A stretch of 64,000 bases of DNA from a virus. Both the position numbers and the translations under genes were made by a program. This document shows, piece after piece, positions 45,601 to 63,538 of this stretch; position 1 is the first letter of the stretch; each line of letters opens with the position of its first letter. The notes below the pieces were generated by a model. The model saw nothing but the letters and a program-made list of their open reading frames with translations. It did not search any database and was not told where the DNA came from. The stretch lies in the IMG/VR virus record IMGVR_UViG_3300035698_026135, positions 1 to 64,000 of that record; one strand, 5' to 3'.

Positions 45601-48600
45601 ATGAAAATTGCCGCTATTGCTGATGTCCATATTCGCGCTCTCGAATATCTCGATGAGATGGAATATACTTTTGATCGCCTTTACGAATCTCTAGAGAGGG
45701 AATCCGTGGATCTTGTTGTCATCTGCGGTGACCTCTTCCATAACAAGCTTACTGCAACTCACGAATATTTTGATTGTGCCTTCCGATTTCTTAAGACTCT
45801 TAGTGACAAATATGAGACGGTTGTCATCCCTGGAAATCACGACCTAGCCCTTTCGAATAGAGATCGTCTCGACGCAATCACTCCGGTCGTCCAAGCTGTC
45901 AATAGCCCCAATCTTCACTATTTCCTTACGTCGAAGGAAACTTTCACAAAAGACTTTAATGGTCAACGCTTTGTGTTTCATCACTTTTCGATCATTGATA
46001 AAAAGTCTGACTGGCCTGACTATGAAAATATAATCAAACACAAGGAAGATAGCGTGCACATCGCCCTCTACCATGGAGATATTGATGGTGCGTGCTACGA
46101 CAACGGCTGGGTCAGTAGGGGAAACAAGGATGAAATAAAAATCTTTTCAGGATTTGACTTTGCTATGCTTGGAGACCTTCATAAATACCAGATGTTGACC
46201 GATCGCATTGGCTACCCTGGCTCCCTAAGACAGAATAACTTTGGAGAACTGGAACTCCGAAAGGGATATCTGCTGTGGGACATAGAATCTAAGGAGGAGT
46301 TTTCCGTCAAGAGATCCGTCCTCCCACAGAAGAGGCACTTCTATACCATAAACGTGGATCCCAAAGAGGGAATCCCTAAAGACCTCGACATCAAAAAGGA
46401 TAGTCGGATTAGAGTTGTTCTCACTGCTCGTGCCACCATCTCTGAAGACCTAAAGATTCGAGAGGAAGTAAAAAATAAATTTCTTCCCTCTGGAGAGATC
46501 TCTGTGATTCCTCCCAAGGATGTGGTTCCTCTCGGCGATATCGAGATAGGAGACGAACAGATACCCCAAGGAAATCTAAGGGATTCTTTGACCCAAAAGA
46601 AGCTCATTGAAGACTATTTTTCCGGCCAAGGATTCGACGAAAAGACCATCAAAGGAGTTTGTGACCTTGATCAATTATATAATGGAGAATTGAACTCTGA
46701 CATCCTTAGGGATGTTATTTGGAAGCCCAAGAAATTATCCTTCAATAACATGTTCTCCTACGGCAAGAGTAATTCGATTGATTTTTCGAAAATAAATGGC
46801 CTCGTTGGAATCCTGGGCAAGAACGCTACAGGAAAGTCTTCTGTGATTGAGTCTCTGTGCTACACGATATTCAACAAGATCAACAAAGAGGGCGCCAACA
46901 AGAATGCAGACTATATCAATTCGAAAAAGCGCAAGTGTTCCACGAAGCTAGAGGTTAACTTTGGTGGAGAGGATTACTTCATCGAGCGGTCAACTTCTAA
47001 ATCTAAGTCCTCAAAAACCCCGCCAGTGAATGAGGTTAACTTCTATAAAAAGAGCGAAGGGAAAACATTGTCCCTGAACGGGGAAGACAAGCCATCTACC
47101 AACGCCGCCATCAGATCCATCTTCGGGGACCTGGGAGACTTCGTAACGACCTCTCTGAGCCCACAGGAGGGCCTAATCGAGTTCCTCAAGACCAGAGGTA
47201 CGGACAAAAAGAAGATATTTGCCAAATTTTTAGATCTTGAGATATTTGAGAAGAAATGTAAGTTTGCGGAGTTGGACTACTCTGAACTCAAGTCTAAGGC
47301 AAAAGAATATTCGAACGTGGATTTCTTTCAGGAACTCATATCCCTCAGAGAAAGTAAGTTAGAGATCGATTTATCCACGAAGGAGTCGGTCAAACAAAGG
47401 GACGACCTAAGAAAGCGAGTTGAAAATACATCTTCCAGGATTATCGATAGATCAAGCCATATCAAAGATATTGATTTTGACGTTTCTGCTACTGAGGATT
47501 CCATAAATTCTCTCATCGAAAGAAATCAGAGCGACATCGAATCAACAAAGAGTAGGCTAAAAACATTGAGCGCTGCTACCGAAGGCTTCGAATCGCTCTT
47601 GGCAAACGTCGATAGCCACAATGCGAAAATCGAAGAGATAAACGAAAAACTAAACGGAATCTCTTTGGTTGAGTCAAAAATCAAAGAAAAGAAAAAGAAG
47701 CTCAAAACCCTCGATATTGTTCCTTGTGGAGATGAATATCCCTCCTGTCCTTTTATAATCGAATCCCACCAGGCGAAGGCGGATCTCCGCCAGTTTGATG
47801 AGTCTCGTTTGGATGTGAAGGGAGACCTCAGGATCGAACTGGAATCTTTCAAGGAGTTGGTTGCCGAAGCCAGAGGAAAAAAAGACCAAGCATCGGAGGT
47901 GCCCGTATTGAGCGTGAAGCTTGAGAATTTAAACCTCAAGAGAGATCAGCTCATATCTCAACTTAAATCTTTTCAGAAAAATAAAGATCTGATCATTGAG
48001 AACAAACACACCATTGACGATATTAATAATCTGAAAAAGGAAAAAGAAAAACTAAATCAGGAGCTATGGGCAACAGAAGAGAAAATACTCGACCTTGCTC
48101 GCCGCCAAGAAAACAAAAATAGAGACATACTAGACTGTGAGACAACACAGGAGAAGATTGAGAAGGTCAGAGTTTCCATAAAGAGTTACGAACTCTACCT
48201 CAAAGCAATGGGAAAGAATGGAATTTCTTATAGGATTATATCTCAGAGGCTCCCCGCAATCAATGAAGAGATCAATAGAATCCTGAGCAATGTCGCAACC
48301 TTTAGCATTCTTATTGACGATGATCAGAAGTCTAAGAGCATACAGATCTATCTATATGACGAAGAGAAGGGAAAGAGAACTATGGAGCTTGGGTCGGGTT
48401 TCGAGAAGACGATGGTCTCGCTGGCTATCAGAGCTGCCCTCTGGAACATCTCTTCTCTACCAAAGGCTCCGATACTGATTCTGGACGAGCCATTCGGGTT
48501 TATTGAAGAAGATAAAATTTCTGCTACAATAAGAATGCTGAAGTATTTAAAGAACTACTTTACTCATATCTTTATCATCAGTCATGATGTTAATATGAAA

Positions 48601-48669
48601 AACATCGTAGATTCTACGATCTATATCGAAAAAGGAGATGATGGCTTTGCTACTTGTAGGGTGTCATAA
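45601..48669 (+). CDS. Fused Mre11/SbcD nuclease - Rad50/SbcC ATPase (gp47-gp46-like)
   Basis: ADVH, CGDLFH, PGNHD, LGDLH, YPGS; Walker A GKNATGKS; coiled coil with PCGDEYPSC; GSGFE; ILILDEP; IISH. Confidence 0.9.
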   Translation: MKIAAIADVHIRALEYLDEMEYTFDRLYESLERESVDLVVICGDLFHNKLTATHEYFDCAFRFLKTLSDKYETVVIPGNHDLALSNRDRLDAITPVVQAVNSPNLHYFLTSKETFTKDFNGQRFVFHHFSIIDKKSDWPDYENIIKHKEDSVHIALYHGDIDGACYDNGWVSRGNKDEIKIFSGFDFAMLGDLHKYQMLTDRIGYPGSLRQNNFGELELRKGYLLWDIESKEEFSVKRSVLPQKRHFYTINVDPKEGIPKDLDIKKDSRIRVVLTARATISEDLKIREEVKNKFLPSGEISVIPPKDVVPLGDIEIGDEQIPQGNLRDSLTQKKLIEDYFSGQGFDEKTIKGVCDLDQLYNGELNSDILRDVIWKPKKLSFNNMFSYGKSNSIDFSKINGLVGILGKNATGKSSVIESLCYTIFNKINKEGANKNADYINSKKRKCSTKLEVNFGGEDYFIERSTSKSKSSKTPPVNEVNFYKKSEGKTLSLNGEDKPSTNAAIRSIFGDLGDFVTTSLSPQEGLIEFLKTRGTDKKKIFAKFLDLEIFEKKCKFAELDYSELKSKAKEYSNVDFFQELISLRESKLEIDLSTKESVKQRDDLRKRVENTSSRIIDRSSHIKDIDFDVSATEDSINSLIERNQSDIESTKSRLKTLSAATEGFESLLANVDSHNAKIEEINEKLNGISLVESKIKEKKKKLKTLDIVPCGDEYPSCPFIIESHQAKADLRQFDESRLDVKGDLRIELESFKELVAEARGKKDQASEVPVLSVKLENLNLKRDQLISQLKSFQKNKDLIIENKHTIDDINNLKKEKEKLNQELWATEEKILDLARRQENKNRDILDCETTQEKIEKVRVSIKSYELYLKAMGKNGISYRIISQRLPAINEEINRILSNVATFSILIDDDQKSKSIQIYLYDEEKGKRTMELGSGFEKTMVSLAIRAALWNISSLPKAPILILDEPFGFIEEDKISATIRMLKYLKNYFTHIFIISHDVNMKNIVDSTIYIEKGDDGFATCRVS

Positions 48670-54052: not shown

Positions 54053-54286
54053 ATGACGCTTAATAATCCCATGAAAAATAAAATTACTGCTAAAAGGGTA
54101 GCTAGGGCAAAAAGAAGGCTGGTTAACCAATATTCTTTGGGTGGAGGTTTTATAAACTCCTACAATTCAGCCATTAATATTGAAGAAAGTCTTGGTTTTT
54201 TTAGGCAAAATATTTCGGCATGTTGTCGAGGAGAATCCAAAACATCTCATGGATATGTTTGGAGACATGAAAATGATACGACATAA
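54053..54286 (+). pseudogene. Stand-alone NUMOD1 domain (homing-endonuclease remnant)
   Basis: VNQYSLGGGFINSYNSA...E.SLG...NISACCRG.SKTSHGYVWR. Confidence 0.7.
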
Positions 54287-55121
54287 CAAAAAAAGAAATA
54301 CATTTATAGTTTACGAACAATTAATTACACTAGTCACACAACTGGCTGCTGGCGGAAATAAAACCGAGGCAAATTTTGTTGTTGAAATCATTAAGGAATG
54401 TTTTCACCCAAAAACACATTTGGGCCGAGAATACAAATTAATGAAGTCCGTCTTCGAAACGAGGCTGGGCTCAAAAGAGGATGCTCAGGATTTACTCAAA
54501 GAGGTTCTTTCAGAATCTAAGATTATTTCCCAAGAAAAACTGGAATTTGAGAAGGGCCGGCTTATAAAAAATATAAATAAATCCTTTTCTAAAGATTTTT
54601 ATAAAATCCCCATTAAAGAATACAAGCAGGCCGCATCCCTGCAAATCTTGATGAACGAATCCAGAACCAAAGATGTTGATACAACTCCCTCAGAGAGAGT
54701 TCAAATCAAGAAGACTTTAATTGAGACCATCACCAGAGCGAAACCTGCTCCCGCCCAAGAGGTTGATAGCCTGACGCTATCTTTGATGATCAAAAAGTTT
54801 AATGGAAGATACGCAAAAATAATGAATGAGGACCAACGACACCTTTTGTCTGCTTGGACAAACTTCATTGTCAACAAGGACGAAACTCAAGCTAAAAAGG
54901 TCATCGAAGAGAAGGTCGATAAGTTGAAAATTTCACTCTCCTCTTTAATGCATTCAAAAAATCATAAAAACAGTGAACTACGAGGCAGTCTAAAAGAAGC
55001 CTACGGCAAACTTGTTGAATCTAAGTTTGAACTAGATGAAAAATCAATTTATGAAGTTATGAGGTATTTTGACCTTACCGAGGACCTTAAAAATTATGAC
55101 CAAGAAGAAAAAGAAGTTTGA
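54273..55121 (+). CDS. Head-module helical protein of unknown function (start moved to ATG 54273)
   Basis: IRHNKKRNT..VYEQL; GGAG SD at 54261, which lies inside the NUMOD1 remnant. Confidence 0.65.
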   Translation: MIRHNKKRNTFIVYEQLITLVTQLAAGGNKTEANFVVEIIKECFHPKTHLGREYKLMKSVFETRLGSKEDAQDLLKEVLSESKIISQEKLEFEKGRLIKNINKSFSKDFYKIPIKEYKQAASLQILMNESRTKDVDTTPSERVQIKKTLIETITRAKPAPAQEVDSLTLSLMIKKFNGRYAKIMNEDQRHLLSAWTNFIVNKDETQAKKVIEEKVDKLKISLSSLMHSKNHKNSELRGSLKEAYGKLVESKFELDEKSIYEVMRYFDLTEDLKNYDQEEKEV

Positions 55122-57315
55122 TGAAGCATCGGTCACAGCCGATATAACAGGATACCTCGCTTCTCGAAAAGCTTTTGCTAACGGAGAGGTGTATAATAAA
55201 AATAAGAAGAATAAGAAACCGACTCCTTGGTACCTGAAAACGGTCAAGGAAGTCCGTGCTGGCGTTCGTAAAGCGCTCACCGAACACAGGCTCCTAAGCG
55301 AATCTGATTTGAATTCGTTTGATGATCACATTGAAGATCTAGAGAATCAACTCGCCGACGCCGAAGAGAGATATGCCGAAAAGCCAAAAGATGCCGCACG
55401 GCGATTCAAAGTCCGCGAACTAGGTAGTCAAGTTCAACGATCCCACAAAGCGAAAGAGCTTGGCGGAGACGATTGGAGAAGTTATCTCATTGACCCAGAA
55501 GGCCAAAAGAAGATTGACGATACCAAAAAAGAGAAATCTACACGAAACAAAAAACAATCAGTGGTGGACGATTTCGACAAAGATCCCGAAGTAGAAAACT
55601 TTGTCTCTGTTGTGACTCCGGGCATCACAAAGTGGGTAAAGGCCAACAAAAATAAAACTGGTGTTTGGCTTCTGAATAAGTTTCAAAAATATCTCAACCA
55701 GACTAATACGAACGCTAAAGAGCTTAAGGACATTGAGAGCCTCGTCAAAGATGTCCTGATTGGCAAATATGCCAATAGTCCGAACCTTACTTCTCCGCTT
55801 GGAAAACCTGCGGAGAGCGAAGAGGATAAAATTAAATATGGCACGCTCGCATTTCTAAAGGCAAAAGAAGGAGAGAAAACACCAGCGCAGCCAATGGATT
55901 CGCCAGAGATGAAAGTCAAAGGCTCAGGCAAACGCACCGCACCAGGCGCAGGAATGGTACAAAAGGGAAGCGATAGGTACCGCAAAAGAATCGCTAAAGA
56001 GCCAATGCCTGGAGCAATCGGAGACCTTCAAAAGCTTCACAAAAAGATAGACGTTGCACCAGAATTTAAAGGCAAGGCTGTTGTTCCACCCAAGAGCGGT
56101 CGGGGCGGAAGCTTTGATCCAGGAACAGCAGGAAAAGAACTTCAGCAATCTTATGTTAAGATTGTAGATGAGATTCTGTATGGAAAAAATGGCAAGTTTG
56201 ACGAACTCGTAAACATCATTGGCCGTCGCCATGGCATAAACGATATGCCAAAGGTTGTTGCGCACCTTGCAAGCTTCGAAAAAGAAGGCGTTGACATGAC
56301 AGAGAAGAATGTAGAAATGCAGTTTTCAGACAAGGAGATCGAGGCCCTTGGAGAATTGTCTGTCCTTTCCGATCCAACCGAAGTTGCAAAATTACAGAGT
56401 CAGGGATTTACTCAATTTGAGGACGCTCTAGGAAATTACCTAAGAGACCTCTTTGCCGATAGAGGATATGACATTAAAACGTCCGATGAAGACGATGACT
56501 TAGATTCAGATTCCGGCGCCGTGACAGATGGGATGAGAGCACTTCTTGCCATCGAATTGAAGGTTAAGAGAAACGAGGTGGACCAAGCCGCTTCCGAAAT
56601 GAGAAAATCGAATCCAGAAAAGTGGAACAAGGCTGAGACCGCCGCCCTGAGAAGGTTGAGAGATCTTTCTCCGAGCGATTTCACCAAAGAGATTCAGGGC
56701 CGAAAGGGCCGAACCGACGATGCAAAAGAGCTTGAAAAAAGAAAGGCTGCCCTCAAGCCATCAGTAGACAAAAGAAGAGAGGAAGACGAAGCAATAGTTG
56801 CCCCTATGGGAAAATCCGATTTCCAAAGAAGTCTGGATGCACGGGAATATCACCAAAATATGTCTGCAATGGACAGGGTTATTGCGAGGCAAGAGAAAGA
56901 GTCGGCCGAGAATGAAGATCAAGGCCTATTTAATCAGAGAGAAAACAAAATGAGTAAAAAAGAATCATACCAATTTAGCATCCTTGAGCTTTTCGAAGGC
57001 TTCGAGAATTCTTACGATATCGAGACCGACGAAAAAGAAGAAGAGTGGGAGAATGGAACCCTTGCGTCCAAGAAAGAATGGGTTAAAGACCTATCCCTAG
57101 AGTCCCTCATGAGGACTATTGTTGAATCCGAGAAGGATAGACACACCAGAACGCGAAGCCCAGAGCCCGCCGATTGGCTTGAAGGAGATGCAGAAGTAGA
57201 AGAGGAACTAAAAAACGTCAATGTTCCTGATGGTTGGAATAAAGGAAACACTCCAGATTCATGGCTCGCCGTTGGCAAGCATGCCGGAAAGCTTCCTGAC
57301 AACGAAAGGAAATAA
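55096..57315 (+). CDS. Large charged protein, probable internal head/core protein (start moved to ATG 55096)
   Basis: K/E/D-rich; between portal and prohead protease; several [LIF]xE sites. Confidence 0.6.
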   Translation: MTKKKKKFDEASVTADITGYLASRKAFANGEVYNKNKKNKKPTPWYLKTVKEVRAGVRKALTEHRLLSESDLNSFDDHIEDLENQLADAEERYAEKPKDAARRFKVRELGSQVQRSHKAKELGGDDWRSYLIDPEGQKKIDDTKKEKSTRNKKQSVVDDFDKDPEVENFVSVVTPGITKWVKANKNKTGVWLLNKFQKYLNQTNTNAKELKDIESLVKDVLIGKYANSPNLTSPLGKPAESEEDKIKYGTLAFLKAKEGEKTPAQPMDSPEMKVKGSGKRTAPGAGMVQKGSDRYRKRIAKEPMPGAIGDLQKLHKKIDVAPEFKGKAVVPPKSGRGGSFDPGTAGKELQQSYVKIVDEILYGKNGKFDELVNIIGRRHGINDMPKVVAHLASFEKEGVDMTEKNVEMQFSDKEIEALGELSVLSDPTEVAKLQSQGFTQFEDALGNYLRDLFADRGYDIKTSDEDDDLDSDSGAVTDGMRALLAIELKVKRNEVDQAASEMRKSNPEKWNKAETAALRRLRDLSPSDFTKEIQGRKGRTDDAKELEKRKAALKPSVDKRREEDEAIVAPMGKSDFQRSLDAREYHQNMSAMDRVIARQEKESAENEDQGLFNQRENKMSKKESYQFSILELFEGFENSYDIETDEKEEEWENGTLASKKEWVKDLSLESLMRTIVESEKDRHTRTRSPEPADWLEGDAEVEEELKNVNVPDGWNKGNTPDSWLAVGKHAGKLPDNERK

Positions 57316-57317
57316 AA

Positions 57318-59030
57318 ATGCCAGTCATCCTCAAAGAGTATTATCAGCTCTCCCCAAATAAAGAGACCCTAACAGAAATGAGACAGTCTCTAAGCGAGGG
57401 CAAACCCTTCATCGTAAAGGGTCTCATTCAACGCGCCGATGCACAGAATCAAAATGGAAGAATTTATCCATTCGAAATTCTCAAAAAGGTCTTGGATGGC
57501 TACGACAAAGATTATGTATCGAAAGGTATTGCATTGGGTGAACTCGACCATTGTCTAGCTGGAGATACGGAAGTGTTGACGGAAGATGGCTGGAAAATGC
57601 TTCCAGATGTAGAGGTCGGAGAGAATGTATATTCCTACAAAGAGGGAGAAATCAAACTTGTGCCGGTAACGAAGACTCACAAATTTGCCTATAATGGAAA
57701 AATGATTCGCCTAACCAACGGAAAAAAGATGGATCTACTAATGACCCCTAATCACAGAATGATTTTGTGGGATAGAGATAATAAAGATTACTATATGACA
57801 GCCGAAGATGCAAGAAAGTCATGGAAGACAAAAAGCCCTTCCCTCTCTCATTCTAGCATTAAGTCGTCCGGCGAGTGGAATGACGGAAATAGCGAATCAT
57901 ATTTTGAGATTCCCGATACGGATTATAGAGTTTCGATGAAGGCGTGGGCCGGTTTGATGGGCATATTTTTATCAGATGGACACGTAGAGGGAAGTCGTTC
58001 GGGAAACGTTAGAAACAATAGGGTTACTATTCACCAGAAAAAGGCCGAAAATATATCAAAAATAGAAGAATTGTTGTCGTCGACCGAACTTCCCTGGACT
58101 AAGTTTATTCACGAAAACGGAAAGCATGAGTGGAGCCTTCACAACAAAGGGGTTCATGCTTACTTTTCTCAGTTTGGCAATTCGGAAACCAAGTTTATTC
58201 CAAGGGATCTACTCTTACAAAATAAAGATGTTTTGTCGACCTTGTCAGAATGGCTCCTTGTTGGCGATGGACGAAACAGAATTTCAAAAACCTCGAACTC
58301 CACAAGAGCTATTAAAGAGTATTCGACTGTGTCAACAAGATTGGCTGACGATGTTAGCGAATTGTTTTTCAAATTGGGATATAGGCCCTTCATCAAGACG
58401 GAGATAGCCAAAGAAGATTTGTTGATTGAAGGGAGGGTTGTCAAAAAAGAAAATTGCAAACCTCTCTATACTGTTGCTGGCAACACGACTAGCACATCGC
58501 TGGATGCTCGATTTATAAACTTCGAAGAAATAGAATATGATGATTATGTTTATTGTATTTCGGATGAAAATAAGAACTTTTTAACACGTAGTCCCAATGG
58601 ATATGTTTGCTGGACAGGCAATACCGAAGAGCCCGTTATAGCACTAAAGAATGTCTCCCATAGAATCCTTGAGGTTTGGTGGGAAGGTAAAGATGTGCAT
58701 GGAAAGGTTCAAATTCTGAACACCCCAGCAGGAAAGATCGCCCAAGAGATGACACTAGCAGGAATACCTCTCGGTATTTCATCGAGAGCCGTTGGATCCG
58801 TATCCAAAAACGAGTCTTCTGGTGCCGATATTGTAGAGGATGACCTTCAAATGATTTGTTTCGATCTTGTCGGCACACCATCTACCCACGGCGCCTTCCT
58901 TCACGAGAATCAAAAAGTGCTTAATTCAAAAGCAAAAGAGATTACGGATTTTGATCCAACAAAAGTTTTGCCCGCCAGCGTAAGAGTAAAGCAAACTCTC
59001 GAAGACATCCTGGGCAAAGAAGTAAAATAA
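57318..59030 (+). CDS. gp21: Prohead core protease (T4 gp21-like) containing an intein
   Basis: QRADAQNQNGRIYP, ALGELDH|intein|TEEP...KNVSH, ILNTPAGKI, LGISSRAVGS, FDLVGTPST; the spliced product would be 213 aa. Confidence 0.95.
   Translation: MPVILKEYYQLSPNKETLTEMRQSLSEGKPFIVKGLIQRADAQNQNGRIYPFEILKKVLDGYDKDYVSKGIALGELDHCLAGDTEVLTEDGWKMLPDVEVGENVYSYKEGEIKLVPVTKTHKFAYNGKMIRLTNGKKMDLLMTPNHRMILWDRDNKDYYMTAEDARKSWKTKSPSLSHSSIKSSGEWNDGNSESYFEIPDTDYRVSMKAWAGLMGIFLSDGHVEGSRSGNVRNNRVTIHQKKAENISKIEELLSSTELPWTKFIHENGKHEWSLHNKGVHAYFSQFGNSETKFIPRDLLLQNKDVLSTLSEWLLVGDGRNRISKTSNSTRAIKEYSTVSTRLADDVSELFFKLGYRPFIKTEIAKEDLLIEGRVVKKENCKPLYTVAGNTTSTSLDARFINFEEIEYDDYVYCISDENKNFLTRSPNGYVCWTGNTEEPVIALKNVSHRILEVWWEGKDVHGKVQILNTPAGKIAQEMTLAGIPLGISSRAVGSVSKNESSGADIVEDDLQMICFDLVGTPSTHGAFLHENQKVLNSKAKEITDFDPTKVLPASVRVKQTLEDILGKEVK
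57552..58622 (+). mobile_element. Intein (357 aa) with a LAGLIDADG homing endonuclease
   Basis: Starts CLAGDTEVLTEDGWK; block B TPNHRM; GIFLSDG and LLVGDG; ends VYCI....NFLTR..G.VCWTGN followed by Thr. Confidence 0.92.
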
Positions 59031-59062: not shown

Positions 59063-59413
59063 ATGAATATAAAGAAACTATCTTTGTTAATTGAGCGTAT
59101 GGTAGCGAAGCAACTCCAGAAACACCTTAAGCCCATGATCAACGAGGTTCTTGCAGAAAAATACCTCTCTGTGCTTACAGAGCAGAAGGCTCCCGGCCTA
59201 CAGGATTCTTTTCCAGCATACACACAAGAAACCAGGCCCACAACCGCACCTCCCGTAGAAGACGGCAGAAAACAACTACAGGAAAGAAGGGAAGCTTTGA
59301 TAGCGAAGCTTACCGATGGAGACCCAGGAATGGCTATGCTTTATGAGGGTACAAGCGCACTCGACGAAGTTGTCGATGATGATGGCGTTGATATCTCTCG
59401 GTTTGGATTTTAA
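59063..59413 (+). CDS. Small head-associated protein
   Basis: Repeated [LI]xE sites (LIE, INE, LAE, LTE, LYE) typical of prohead-protease substrates. Confidence 0.55.
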   Translation: MNIKKLSLLIERMVAKQLQKHLKPMINEVLAEKYLSVLTEQKAPGLQDSFPAYTQETRPTTAPPVEDGRKQLQERREALIAKLTDGDPGMAMLYEGTSALDEVVDDDGVDISRFGF

Positions 59414-59415
59414 TT

Positions 59416-59748
59416 ATGGATAAATTTAATATATTTGGATTTCTTTTTGAGGGTGGAATGTTGAGCGAAGAGGGAGAAGAGGAAGAGCAACCCGAAGCTG
59501 AACCCGAAGCTCCACAACAGCAACAGCAAGCTGAGCCGACACCAGAGAAAAATGCTGAAGTCGTTAGTCCCACGACAAGTCCTTTCGATCAATTTACTGG
59601 AGAAACAATTCAGAATATTGAATTTCAACCACATGAAAATGGTGGAAGTTTTACAATTAAAGTCGCCAACTCGAATTTGCCAATCATTATTAGTTGGGCT
59701 GGCGATCGAGTCACCATGAAGCACAAGGATATTGTCTCACTAACGTAG
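59416..59748 (+). CDS. Small acidic head-module protein
   Basis: LFE/LSE then an E/P/Q-rich linker and a small beta domain. Confidence 0.55.
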   Translation: MDKFNIFGFLFEGGMLSEEGEEEEQPEAEPEAPQQQQQAEPTPEKNAEVVSPTTSPFDQFTGETIQNIEFQPHENGGSFTIKVANSNLPIIISWAGDRVTMKHKDIVSLT

Positions 59749-59779
59749 TCAATATATTTTTGTTTTACTATTTAAACAT

Positions 59780-60865
59780 GTGAAACTGAAGCTTACAGAC
59801 ATTCTGAAGGAATTGGTTGGAGGTCCCAGCCTTCGTCCTCAAGGCCCTTCAGGCGCAAACCAACATCTATTCCCACACCATGGCCTATACGGCAAATTGG
59901 GCGGAGGGAAGCCTAAAGCTTCCAATAAAGCCCCATATAACGATAAGGATTCAGATTTAGAGAACGGCGATAAAATGGCCGACGAAGCACAACCAAAAAT
60001 AGAAGAGCTTCCTTTGGAGAATCTATTTAAATTTACCACATCGGCCAACGATAATACATCGTTTCCTCGTCCTCCAACTATGGGAGCGGGATCAATGGCC
60101 GCATATGGAAAAGACACTAATGCGATCGACTCCTTCGATACGAGCGATGAAGGAAATGAGGAGCGATTCAAGACACTTAAGGGCCGCGAAGACCAAAGAG
60201 CTAAGATTACAGAGCTTGCAGGGGGGAGAGAGAGACACCCTCGCGATGACAATGATTACTCCACCAAGCAAGGCTGGGCCAACGGAATTCCTGGCCGAGA
60301 CAAAAAAGACATCGAAGCTGGTGATTTAAAAGTAGATGAAATGATGAAAGATAGAGCACCCGATGCTGACGCTGGAAAGATCTATAAAAGGATTGTAGGA
60401 GAATCTCATGCTGGCCCACTCAAGGAAGGGGGCGCCGATTCGTCCTTTTCGAGAATGAATTTACAAAAAACGATGAAATCGCCCCAAAGTGATTTAAATT
60501 TTTGGAATATTATTGATAGAGAAAATATATATCTATTAACGAACCCTAACAAAAAGGAAAAGAATGACAAAAGGAAAAGAAGAAAAGTACAGATTGATAA
60601 GAGATTCCACAAAGCGGCTGAGCTAACTCACGTCCCCGTTGTGGCTAAGCACCTAGAAGTGAAAGCAGAAGAGGTGAATGGAGACATTAGAAAACTAATA
60701 AAGAAATTTTGCAAAAAAGTGAGAAGAGAAGAAGTTCTTAAACCATTTTATGGAAAATTGATGCACTATACTCCAAAGTCTGAAATCAAAAGACAGAAAA
60801 AACTGTCTGCGATATATTCTCAGAAAAAGAAGGAAGAAAAAGAAGAAAAGGAAGAAATTTTATAA
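59780..60865 (+). CDS. Low-complexity head-module protein with a C-terminal bS21-like ribosomal protein domain
   Basis: A single 361-aa frame; the last ~75 aa are bS21-like (see next feature). Confidence 0.65.
   Translation: MKLKLTDILKELVGGPSLRPQGPSGANQHLFPHHGLYGKLGGGKPKASNKAPYNDKDSDLENGDKMADEAQPKIEELPLENLFKFTTSANDNTSFPRPPTMGAGSMAAYGKDTNAIDSFDTSDEGNEERFKTLKGREDQRAKITELAGGRERHPRDDNDYSTKQGWANGIPGRDKKDIEAGDLKVDEMMKDRAPDADAGKIYKRIVGESHAGPLKEGGADSSFSRMNLQKTMKSPQSDLNFWNIIDRENIYLLTNPNKKEKNDKRKRRKVQIDKRFHKAAELTHVPVVAKHLEVKAEEVNGDIRKLIKKFCKKVRREEVLKPFYGKLMHYTPKSEIKRQKKLSAIYSQKKKEEKEEKEEIL
60641..60865 (+). other. rpsU: Ribosomal protein bS21-like domain
   Basis: LEVK..EVNGDIRKLIKKFCKKVRREEVLK....LMHYTPKSEIKRQKKLSA versus the bS21 pattern (V.....E.ALRRFK......G.L.E......Y.KPS..RR.K...A). 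Confidence 0.6.
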
Positions 60866-60928
60866 TTTCTCTGCCTTTTAGGAAATTATTGCATAATTAA
60901 ATGTAAATCTAAAGGAGTTAAATAAACA

Positions 60929-61888
60929 ATGGCAAAACGCAATATTCTTCAAGAATCGATTGTTGAAGCAAAACAACTAAAAGAGGCTGCTTACGAAAAT
61001 GCCCAGAGTGTGCTCATGGAGCACTTGAAGGATAATGTAAAGCAGTTTGTTGACGACCAGATTAATGAGTCTCTTCTTACTGAAGCTGACGAGGTTTCCG
61101 ACGCAGATTCATGCGGTGACGATGAAGAAGTACAAGAAGAAGGTTACAACATGGAAGGAGAAGAGGACATGACAGACGATGAACTAGACCTAGAGGAAGT
61201 TCCCGAAGAAGAGGAAGAAGACGAAGAAGAAGAGTGTGGAGAAGACGAGGACGTGTCCGAAGGCTTCAGCGAAGAGGATCTAGAAGAAGCGATTAATGCT
61301 GCTTTGTCAGAAGTAACCCACGGCGGACTCGGAGACATGGATTGGATTGAGAACGATGGCGAGAAACACGGCACCGGGATCGAAGATTTTGATTCGAAAG
61401 AAGACGGATGGGAAAAGAAACGCGCTCCCAAAGCAACCGATGCTAAACTGTACGGTGGCGAGCAATACCACGAGAGTCTCAAAGCGAAGATTGCATCTCT
61501 TGTAAAAGAGAATGTTACGCTTAAAAAGGCTCACAAGAAACTCTCAGAGGCTCTTAGTGAAACAAATCTTTTTAACGCAAAATTGTATTACGCTACACAG
61601 CTAATGCAGAATGAGTCGCTTAACTCAGATATCAAGACCAAGATAATTAAAAAAATGGACAAGGCCACGACTCGAAACGAGGCGAAAGGCATTTATGAGT
61701 CCGTAGAATTTGCTATTGGATTAATGGGTGAATCAAAGAAGACTTCCAAGAAGTCAAAACGTTCACTTTCCGAAGCTTATGGTTCTGAAGGCAAGTCAGC
61801 TGGCACAGGTGCCGGCGTAACAAATACAGCTCTTACTGAGTCGTATATACGTCGCAGCCAAATCCTCGCTGGTATTGTCAAAGAATAA
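60929..61888 (+). CDS. Prohead scaffolding/core protein (gp22-like)
   Basis: ESIVEAKQLKEAA..NA; very acidic middle; LSETNLFNAKL.Y; R.QILAGI; directly before the MCP. Confidence 0.8.
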   Translation: MAKRNILQESIVEAKQLKEAAYENAQSVLMEHLKDNVKQFVDDQINESLLTEADEVSDADSCGDDEEVQEEGYNMEGEEDMTDDELDLEEVPEEEEEDEEEECGEDEDVSEGFSEEDLEEAINAALSEVTHGGLGDMDWIENDGEKHGTGIEDFDSKEDGWEKKRAPKATDAKLYGGEQYHESLKAKIASLVKENVTLKKAHKKLSEALSETNLFNAKLYYATQLMQNESLNSDIKTKIIKKMDKATTRNEAKGIYESVEFAIGLMGESKKTSKKSKRSLSEAYGSEGKSAGTGAGVTNTALTESYIRRSQILAGIVKE

Positions 61889-61909: not shown

Positions 61910-63538
61910 ATGAATTTTAAAGAATTAACACAAGATACTCGTAACGAGCGAACTTCACAGTCCGCTATCTCACGAAAGAAAGTTGCCAAATGGCAAAAGA
62001 CAGGTCTTCTCGAAGGCTTAAAGGATGCCCGCACGAAAGCCAATATGGCTCGACTGCTTGAGAATCAGGCGGCATCGATGCTTAATGAGGCATCAGACAC
62101 ATCCGACGTAAAGGGATTTCAGGCTATTGCCTTCCCTATGGTACGTCGTGTTTTCGGCAACCTTTTGGTTGGCGAAATTGCATCGGTTCAGCCGATGGCA
62201 CTTCCATCTGGTCTAGTCTTTTGGCTCGACTTTACACATGGTAGTACCGGAAAGGCTGGTACTGGCCGAGACGACTGGTCATCCGGTGGCTCGGTATTTG
62301 GAGATCCCGTTGGACCTCTTACCGGTGGTGCTGATGGAACTGGAGGTCACTACAACCTTCATAATAGTTATACTCAATTCGAAGCTTCGGCTGCGGTTGG
62401 TCTAGCTTCGTCAGGTTCGGCAACTTGGCTTGAGGTCGAATATGATCTTGAGCTTTCGTCCGCTGTAGCTGGCGACACTCTTTGGAAGGTCACTGTTGAC
62501 CTCGACGAGAATGCTGCAATCACAAATGTGGATCAATCAAACTATAAGAGTTTTGCCATCTCGGGAGCAGTGAACGCAGGTGTCACTCGCTACTACAGAC
62601 GTCACAATTTGTTTGATACTGCCACCAATATCCTAACTGTCTTTTACACTGGTGCCGCTGCGCTCGATTCGGGCTCGGCTGTTCAAGTTGCTTATGTCAA
62701 GAAGGATGTTCTTGGAGCAGATACGAATGGTACAACCTTGAGCCCCGCGTTCGAGTATGCATTTGATAGTGCAGATGACATTCCAGAGATTGATATCAAA
62801 ATTACATCTCATCCGGTCACAGCTAACAGTCGTAAGTTGAAAGTCAAGTGGACTCCAGAAGTCGCGCAGGATCTTAACGCTTATCACACTGTTGACGCTG
62901 AAGCTGAGCTTACTCAGGTGATGGCCGATCAGGTGGCACTCGATATTGATTCCGAGGTACTTCAAGATATGGTCAACAATGCGAAAGCAGCGAAATACTA
63001 CTGGGACCGTCGTCCTGGAACGTATGTCGATAAGGCAACAGGCGTGGAGATCACTGGACCTTCCTTCACGGGTAATGTTCAGGAGTGGTATCTTACTCTC
63101 ATGGAAACAGTCCTTGACGTAAGTAACACGATCCACCGCAAGAACTTGCGCTCAGGAGCTAACTTCATGGTGACATCACCTGACGTAGCAACAATCCTTG
63201 AGTCAATGGTTCAATGGCGTCCTTCGATTGATGTTGGCGATCCAAAGCAAACTAAATACTCGATGGGTATTGAGAAAATTGGTACACTTGCAAACCGTTT
63301 CACGGTCTACAAAGCTCCTTTCTTCTTCCGTAATATGATCCTAGTTGGATTTAAGGGAGACGAGTGGCTTGAGACTGGATACGTCTATGCTCCGTACGTT
63401 CCGATGATCGTTACACCAACGATCTACGAGCCCGATAACTTCACTCCACGCAAGGCGGTCATGACCCGTTATGCGAAACAGATCATCCGTGGTGATTATT
63501 ACGGTCTCGTGGTCGTGAAAGGAATGAATATTTTCTAA
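61910..63538 (+). CDS. gp23: Major capsid protein (T4 gp23-like)
   Basis: KW.KTGLLEGL, MARLLENQ, FPMVRRVF, SVQPM.LPSGLVF.LDF, RKLK..WTPE.AQDLNAYH.VDAEAELT, GYVYAPYVP, FTPRK.VMTRYA. Confidence 0.97.
   Translation: MNFKELTQDTRNERTSQSAISRKKVAKWQKTGLLEGLKDARTKANMARLLENQAASMLNEASDTSDVKGFQAIAFPMVRRVFGNLLVGEIASVQPMALPSGLVFWLDFTHGSTGKAGTGRDDWSSGGSVFGDPVGPLTGGADGTGGHYNLHNSYTQFEASAAVGLASSGSATWLEVEYDLELSSAVAGDTLWKVTVDLDENAAITNVDQSNYKSFAISGAVNAGVTRYYRRHNLFDTATNILTVFYTGAAALDSGSAVQVAYVKKDVLGADTNGTTLSPAFEYAFDSADDIPEIDIKITSHPVTANSRKLKVKWTPEVAQDLNAYHTVDAEAELTQVMADQVALDIDSEVLQDMVNNAKAAKYYWDRRPGTYVDKATGVEITGPSFTGNVQEWYLTLMETVLDVSNTIHRKNLRSGANFMVTSPDVATILESMVQWRPSIDVGDPKQTKYSMGIEKIGTLANRFTVYKAPFFFRNMILVGFKGDEWLETGYVYAPYVPMIVTPTIYEPDNFTPRKAVMTRYAKQIIRGDYYGLVVVKGMNIF

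Follow-up and report, generated by a model that had tools for sequence, protein, structure and literature searches.

The uninterrupted 361-aa open reading frame that runs from a GTG at 59780 to a TAA at 60865 on the + strand of this phage genome is probably two overlapping genes, one for a core-like protein and one for the ribosomal protein bS21, joined in the record by one missing A. The window (the whole stretch of 64,000 nt that was analysed) was taken from a 113-kb IMG/VR virus record estimated to be 52% complete; pieces of it occur in public runs from salt-lake metagenomes, with no RNA run listed among these. The frame lies in a head module with the order TerL, portal, two ORFs, protease, two small ORFs, the 272-aa gene, bS21, scaffold and major capsid protein (MCP), and the locus most likely represents two overlapping late genes of a distant T4-like phage of a salt lake. 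Its features are as follows:

50268, TerL
51919, portal (gp20)
57318..59030, + strand, T4 gp21-type prohead protease with an intein (Pfam Peptidase_S77, 6.5e-17; PHROG 207)
59063-59413 and 59416-59748, two small ORFs between the protease and the 272-aa gene
59780..60597, + strand, upstream gene proper, 272 aa, with its stop TGA at 60595-60597 if the A run at 60575-60578 is read as A5
59780..59812, + strand, N-terminal leader MKLKLTDILKE of the upstream gene, ending in L-K-E, with [LI]xE at aa 9-11
60554..60558, + strand, AAGGA ribosome-binding motif, 5 nt before ATG 60564
60564..60865, + strand, bS21 gene proper, 100 aa from ATG 60564 if A5 is read (MTKGKRRKVQIDKRF...)
60575..60578, + strand, A4 run, one base shorter than in a public 249-nt contig of run X1
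60641..60643, + strand, in-frame GTG, a possible start for a short-leader bS21 (MAKHLEV...) even with A4
60677..60820, + strand, bS21 domain core, Pfam positions 6-53 of 55 (20.9 bits, E 3.6e-5 in this genome)
60863-60865, + strand, bS21 stop TAA
60929..61888, + strand, acidic scaffold-like protein directly 3' of bS21 and before gp23
61910..63538, + strand, T4 gp23-type major capsid protein (Pfam Gp23, 1.2e-63)

The single 361-aa frame exists because the A run at 60575-60578 is one base short relative to the public contig. This 249-nt Logan contig from run X1 aligns with 60502-60749 free of mismatches, with a single extra A after position 60574. With one extra A, the upstream translation is 272 aa long and ends ...KKEKNDKRKKKKSTD, and ATG 60564 opens a 100-aa ORF (MTKGKRRKVQIDKRFHKAAELTHVPVVAKHLEVK...) with an N-terminus matching that of P0007, the bS21-like protein of the closest relative; in the window as given, the upstream frame continues to 60865. 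The first-pass annotation had read the frame as a bS21 domain fused to a probable internal head protein, a reading it tied to the lack of an indel between the two parts, and the one extra A in the X1 contig (depth 3.2) separates the genes. No other contig of runs X1-X4 bridges the junction, most of 59400-61400 being uncovered in them, and the contig may be in error, as may any lone contig of depth below 5. Loose ends and joints at 60824-60857, a low-complexity GAA/AAG repeat, were disregarded. The reconstructed DNA of the closest relative is 3 nt (in frame) from the A5 form and 2 nt from the A4 form. Elsewhere the window shows tight, clean coding and nothing to suggest that homopolymer errors are widespread, so that A4 could be a real allele. 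The A4 state thus reflects an error in sequencing or assembly, or a minor frameshift allele that occurs naturally, and, judging from the sequences compared, the fusion is not a conserved feature, whichever origin A4 has.

The junction was examined in relatives of both parts. Homologues of the N-terminal part (n = 7; P0001-6 and P0031) are 263-308 aa long and 38-67% identical, and all seven end at the junction, where window aa ~265-275 are rich in Lys. In the closest relative the bS21-like part is a protein of its own, P0007 (96 aa), which is 73-75% identical (73% over window aa 264-356) and starts MKRKRRQVKIK... opposite DKRKRRKVQID in the window; P0001 and P0007 come from a single ENA contig of 2146 nt. 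When it was asked whether one DNA can encode, in two frames, both the C-terminal end of an N-part homologue and the N-terminal end of a bS21-family protein, non-trivial solutions were obtained for P0001/P0007 (44 nt), for P0002 and P0030 with P0010 (26 nt) and for P0005/P0020 (38 nt), and in each of these protein-pair solutions the bS21 ATG lies inside AATGA, as it does at 60563-60567 of the window. The only DNA compatible with the 38-nt overlap of P0005/P0020 contains runs of A7, A7 and A8, making indel errors or real slippage likely there. The overlap is seen directly in metagenome contig L001, where the stop codon of a 308-aa gene is at 2121-2123 and an overlapping ORF, read in another frame, opens with MKKMKIPEAVIFEPLQVTLEEVKG, matching the start of the bS21 family; L001 is the only locus obtained from the metagenome scan and ends 50 nt past the junction. 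A targeted search for the bS21-like part in proteins of 198-632 aa found none. Thus, the out-of-frame overlap is present in four relatives and none of the four junctions is fused, from which it follows that two genes overlapping out of frame are the ancestral and general arrangement. The in-frame junction is found in this record alone; the fusion state in relatives, which had been put forward as a check of the fused reading, went against it.

Further searches for the locus were made in virus collections. Scans of IMG/VR (the window's own record excluded) with the alignment of the N-terminal part, the bS21 alignment and the exact A4/A5 junction pattern gave nothing, a tblastn search with the 361-aa ORF as query found no match in 50,697 phage records, and PHROGs has no family for either part of the ORF.

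The 100-aa form of bS21 carries a basic N-terminal extension of ~30 aa ahead of the S21 core. Its AAGGA recurs as AAGGA(A) at the protease, the 116-aa gene and the capsid gene, 5-7 nt ahead of each ATG; this spacing is common to late head genes (57318, 59063, 60564 and 61910), and an SD-like motif at 3-12 nt was found in only 17 of 41 sampled genes of the window. The 272-aa gene has a GTG start without an SD-like motif. Translation from the GTG at 60641 could give a short-leader bS21; no AAGGA lies upstream of this codon, and equally short N-termini occur in some members of the bS21 family.

The assignment of the C-terminal part to bS21 had been made from its last ~75 aa, and it holds: with high confidence this part is a divergent bS21. 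The opposing view takes it for a head or DNA-binding protein, small, basic and helical, that resembles bS21 by composition, and draws on the weak scores of the window's own sequence, all of which are under the curated thresholds. Pfam Ribosomal_S21 gave 17.1 bits at aa 300-347 of the whole ORF, 20.2 bits on a 99-aa piece and 21 bits on a 74-aa piece, against a cut-off of 27, and NCBIfam TIGR00030 (S21p) gave 12.6 bits against a cut-off of 28.95; the alignment in this HMM check, which had been proposed for the region, covers profile positions 6-53 of 55. Evidence from the family as a whole supports the homology. With the window piece and its closest relative as query, a profile search yielded, among 1.84 billion representative proteins, 22 true relatives of the bS21 part, all of 70-108 aa and none fused; the sole long match, P0028 (328 aa), is an unrelated tandem-repeat protein. 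Pfam S21 (PF01165) is matched by 14 of the 23 members of the resulting family, with a best E of 3.8e-14. When the 23-member profile was compared with the PDB, all 26 matched sequences were bS21 (best E 2.8e-6), the best match covering chain residues 4-60 of 63, the full length of S21, with the Tyr of ...SAIYSQ... in the window aligned with Tyr54. A profile of only two sequences (A2) found no bS21 in the PDB, its only match being mitochondrial RNA polymerase, by chance.

Structural comparison of the bS21 part agrees with the assignment but does not decide it for a small helical protein. An AF2 model is helical with a pLDDT of 87, and Foldseek against the PDB returned no match at E <= 0.001, its top rows being 85- to 87-residue chains of mitoribosome small subunits at E 4-8, a candidate identity. 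In 48,161 comparisons by VIA-align, the bS21 chains 8fmw_U (Z 5.8) and 11bq_U (Z 5.2) ranked 1 and 2, with 19-21% identity and an rmsd of ~11 A, although a Z below 8 is weak for helical proteins and values of 5-6 are unreliable. The placement of the gene among head genes would suit a head protein, but true phage bS21 has been documented in a head module (PMC9723584), and the syntenic gene of Microcystis phage Mel-JY01 is above the Pfam cut-off at 45 bits. A non-ribosomal protein is accordingly considered unlikely.

The upstream protein has no match in Pfam or PHROGs. Its AF2 model, built from a shallow alignment, has a pLDDT of 48.8 and no confident fold, in keeping with the disorder noted in the first-pass annotation, and the ESM Atlas gave a best score of 0.77 with the N-terminal part, which is not informative. 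T4 internal proteins bear a capsid-targeting sequence (CTS) of ~10 residues that is removed by gp21 after [LI]xE, and the leader MKLKLTDILKE resembles such a sequence with a gp21-type cleavage site. In all seven homologues, as in the window, the first [LI]xE ends at residue 5-11; a second conserved site lies at ~aa 143-145, as [IV]xE, and the leader (aa 9-11) and this site are the only ones conserved. Several [LIV]xE sites had been noted, like those of the neighbouring scaffold and core proteins, but the whole 361-aa frame has 4 [LI]xE sites where 3.8 are expected from composition, so that their number by itself is no evidence. The broader proposal of a protease-processed head protein is sustained by the conserved leader and the position in the head module: the product is most likely a prohead core or internal protein, targeted to the core and trimmed by a gp21-type protease. 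Its core-protein role is putative and is read only from position and leader motif.

The two small genes that precede the 272-aa gene also have leaders of ~10 residues ending in [LI]xE (MNIKKLSLLIE and MDKFNIFGFLFE), and probably encode further protease-processed core proteins. Their order is kept in L001 (355-777 and 792-1196), as is the local gene order around the 272-aa gene. The 116-aa protein (small gene at 59063) has 7 [LI]xE sites against 1.6 expected, and the scaffold-like protein at 60929-61888 has 14 against 6.7 expected. In the protease (57318-59030), Pfam detects Peptidase_S77 in two stretches together with Intein_splicing, LAGLIDADG_3 and Hint; the intein thus carries a LAGLIDADG homing-endonuclease domain, the host sequence reading ...GELDH/CLAGDTEV.... 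Between portal and protease are ORFs of 313 aa (54180-55121) and 748 aa (55069-57315), both without a known family, that overlap by ~50 nt as listed; for the second, the ATG of ...IMTKKKKKFDE is the more probable start, giving another A-rich overlap similar in style to the bS21 junction. Farther upstream, a 1022-aa ORF (45601-48669) with an N-terminal calcineurin-like phosphoesterase (Metallophos) and a SMC_N/RecF-type ATPase looks like SbcD and SbcC in one polypeptide.

The first-pass annotation had proposed that the fusion may package bS21 in the head, from which the prohead protease would release it. If the fusion were real and functional, created by a 1-nt deletion, bS21 would be loaded in the prohead, delivered with the DNA, and would reprogramme host ribosomes at the start of infection. 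The frame is indeed uninterrupted in the window as given, the N-terminal part has a conserved CTS-like leader, and the assembly otherwise looks clean. Nevertheless, an otherwise identical contig is unfused, and fused relatives number none among 4 junctions, 22 bS21-family proteins and 7 N-part homologues. Moreover, the stretch from aa 216 to the bS21 part lacks an [LI]xE at which bS21 could be released, and published expression places phage bS21 late rather than at entry (PMC9723584). Delivery of this kind is very unlikely. A virion-delivered ribosomal protein would, if true, be a new way for a phage to seize translation; since the fusion is likely a one-base artefact or a rare allele, the claim should not be propagated.

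The A-rich overlap raises the further question of recoding. The same annotation had offered, as its alternative, that ATG 60564 with its AAGGA and an A-rich run indicates either an assembly error or free bS21 made by a -1 frameshift; this alternative is essentially correct, A4 being an assembly error or a minor allele, and a programmed frameshift is needless. Both products might be deliberate, through frameshifting or transcriptional slippage of the gpG/GT type, giving mostly separate proteins with a minor fusion or the reverse. In favour, all relatives have an A-rich overlap, runs of A7-A8 occur in the reconstructed P0005/P0020 DNA, and it is precisely in the length of an A run that the window departs from the X1 contig. 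In the window itself, however, the runs in 60551-60586 are of A4-A5 only, which, against the about 8 or more of a slippage homopolymer, is not long enough for slippage to be efficient. The frame of ATG 60564 contains no X XXY YYZ heptamer, a -1 shift from the upstream frame misses the bS21 frame in unfused relatives, and no recoding is needed because bS21 has its own ATG and AAGGA. This account is very unlikely. There is a slim chance that the A-rich overlap serves as a device for a minor fusion product that carries a few copies of bS21 into the capsid: one A would be lost in transcription, or A4 and A5 would persist as a standing polymorphism, bS21 would ride the leader of the core protein into the capsid and enter the next host with the DNA, and the A4 allele of the record would be that state caught in DNA.

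On the preferred reading of two overlapping genes, the first (59780-60597, 272 aa) would encode a largely unstructured protein of the head module, directed to the scaffold core and processed there by the protease, and the second (60564-60865, 100 aa) would start from its own ATG inside the last 35 nt of the first, in another frame. Because the bS21 ATG lies within the end of the first gene, translational coupling with that gene is suggested, as is late expression alongside the head genes. By analogy with published phage bS21, the protein would enter the host 30S subunit and bias initiation toward late messages of the phage. That the start of bS21 is conserved within the last part of a capsid-targeted head gene suggests that its translation is tightly coupled to that of head assembly genes, and the overlap agrees with, and adds to, the published association of phage bS21 with late expression of structural genes. 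A further gain is a bS21 subfamily of salt-lake T4-like phages that is divergent, scores below threshold, has a basic N-terminal extension and is missed by ordinary annotation.

The occurrence of bS21 beside a phage prohead protease and capsid gene is already published (PMC9723584). In large freshwater phages that infect Bacteroidetes, Chen et al. 2022 (PMC9723584) located bS21 in the TerL-portal-protease-MCP region; they found the prohead protease at most ten genes from bS21 in 310 of 900 published phage genomes, reported that phage bS21 is expressed late together with structural genes, and discussed an aromatic residue at Tyr54 for Bacteroidetes-type bS21. As in those phages, a small stand-alone bS21 is found here a few genes from the prohead protease, portal, TerL and MCP, with a conserved aromatic residue at the Tyr54 position and a proposed role in late translation; a Bacteroidota host is a tentative inference only. 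Unlike those bS21 genes, which are on the reverse strand, this one shares its strand with the head genes, begins inside the 3' end of the head gene before it, has the ~30-aa basic N-terminal extension, is too divergent for the Pfam cut-off, and comes from a salt lake. The bS21 of pelagiphage HTVC008M, which enters E. coli ribosomes as shown by mass spectrometry of purified ribosomes (Mizuno et al. 2019, PMC6375957), is likewise virus-encoded; in the phage collection, tblastn gave no sequence match.

A like arrangement occurs in Microcystis phage Mel-JY01 (PP395634), with an annotated RpsU of 45 bits two genes past the protease, between it and scaffold or MCP (locus L004, 6200-6427), and in the 484-kb uncultured huge phage LR756508, with a 79-aa bS21 directly before scaffold and MCP (locus L005, 6810-7049). 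Both share with the window related gp23-type capsid proteins (36-40% identity) and this placement of bS21; in contrast, their bS21 proteins are 75-79 aa long without a long basic leader and score 40-45 bits, over the Pfam cut-off, and overlap with the upstream gene was not seen. No S21 was found in the related Flavobacterium phage immuto or Rhodothermus phage RM378, and a 75-aa ORF after the protease of immuto is not bS21.

In T4, the proteins IPI-III, Alt and gp67/gp68 carry a capsid-targeting sequence and are cut by gp21 after [LI]xE. The 272-aa protein and the products of the two small genes are like these internal and core proteins in having [LI]xE leaders of ~10 residues and a gp21-type protease nearby; they differ in that no sequence or fold similarity to known T4 core proteins was detected (Pfam, PHROG, ESM Atlas, AF2), their packaging and cleavage being predicted from the genes. 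What is particular to the present bS21 is its location on the same strand as the head genes, its conserved overlap with a CTS-bearing gene, its ~30-aa basic extension and its sub-threshold divergence.
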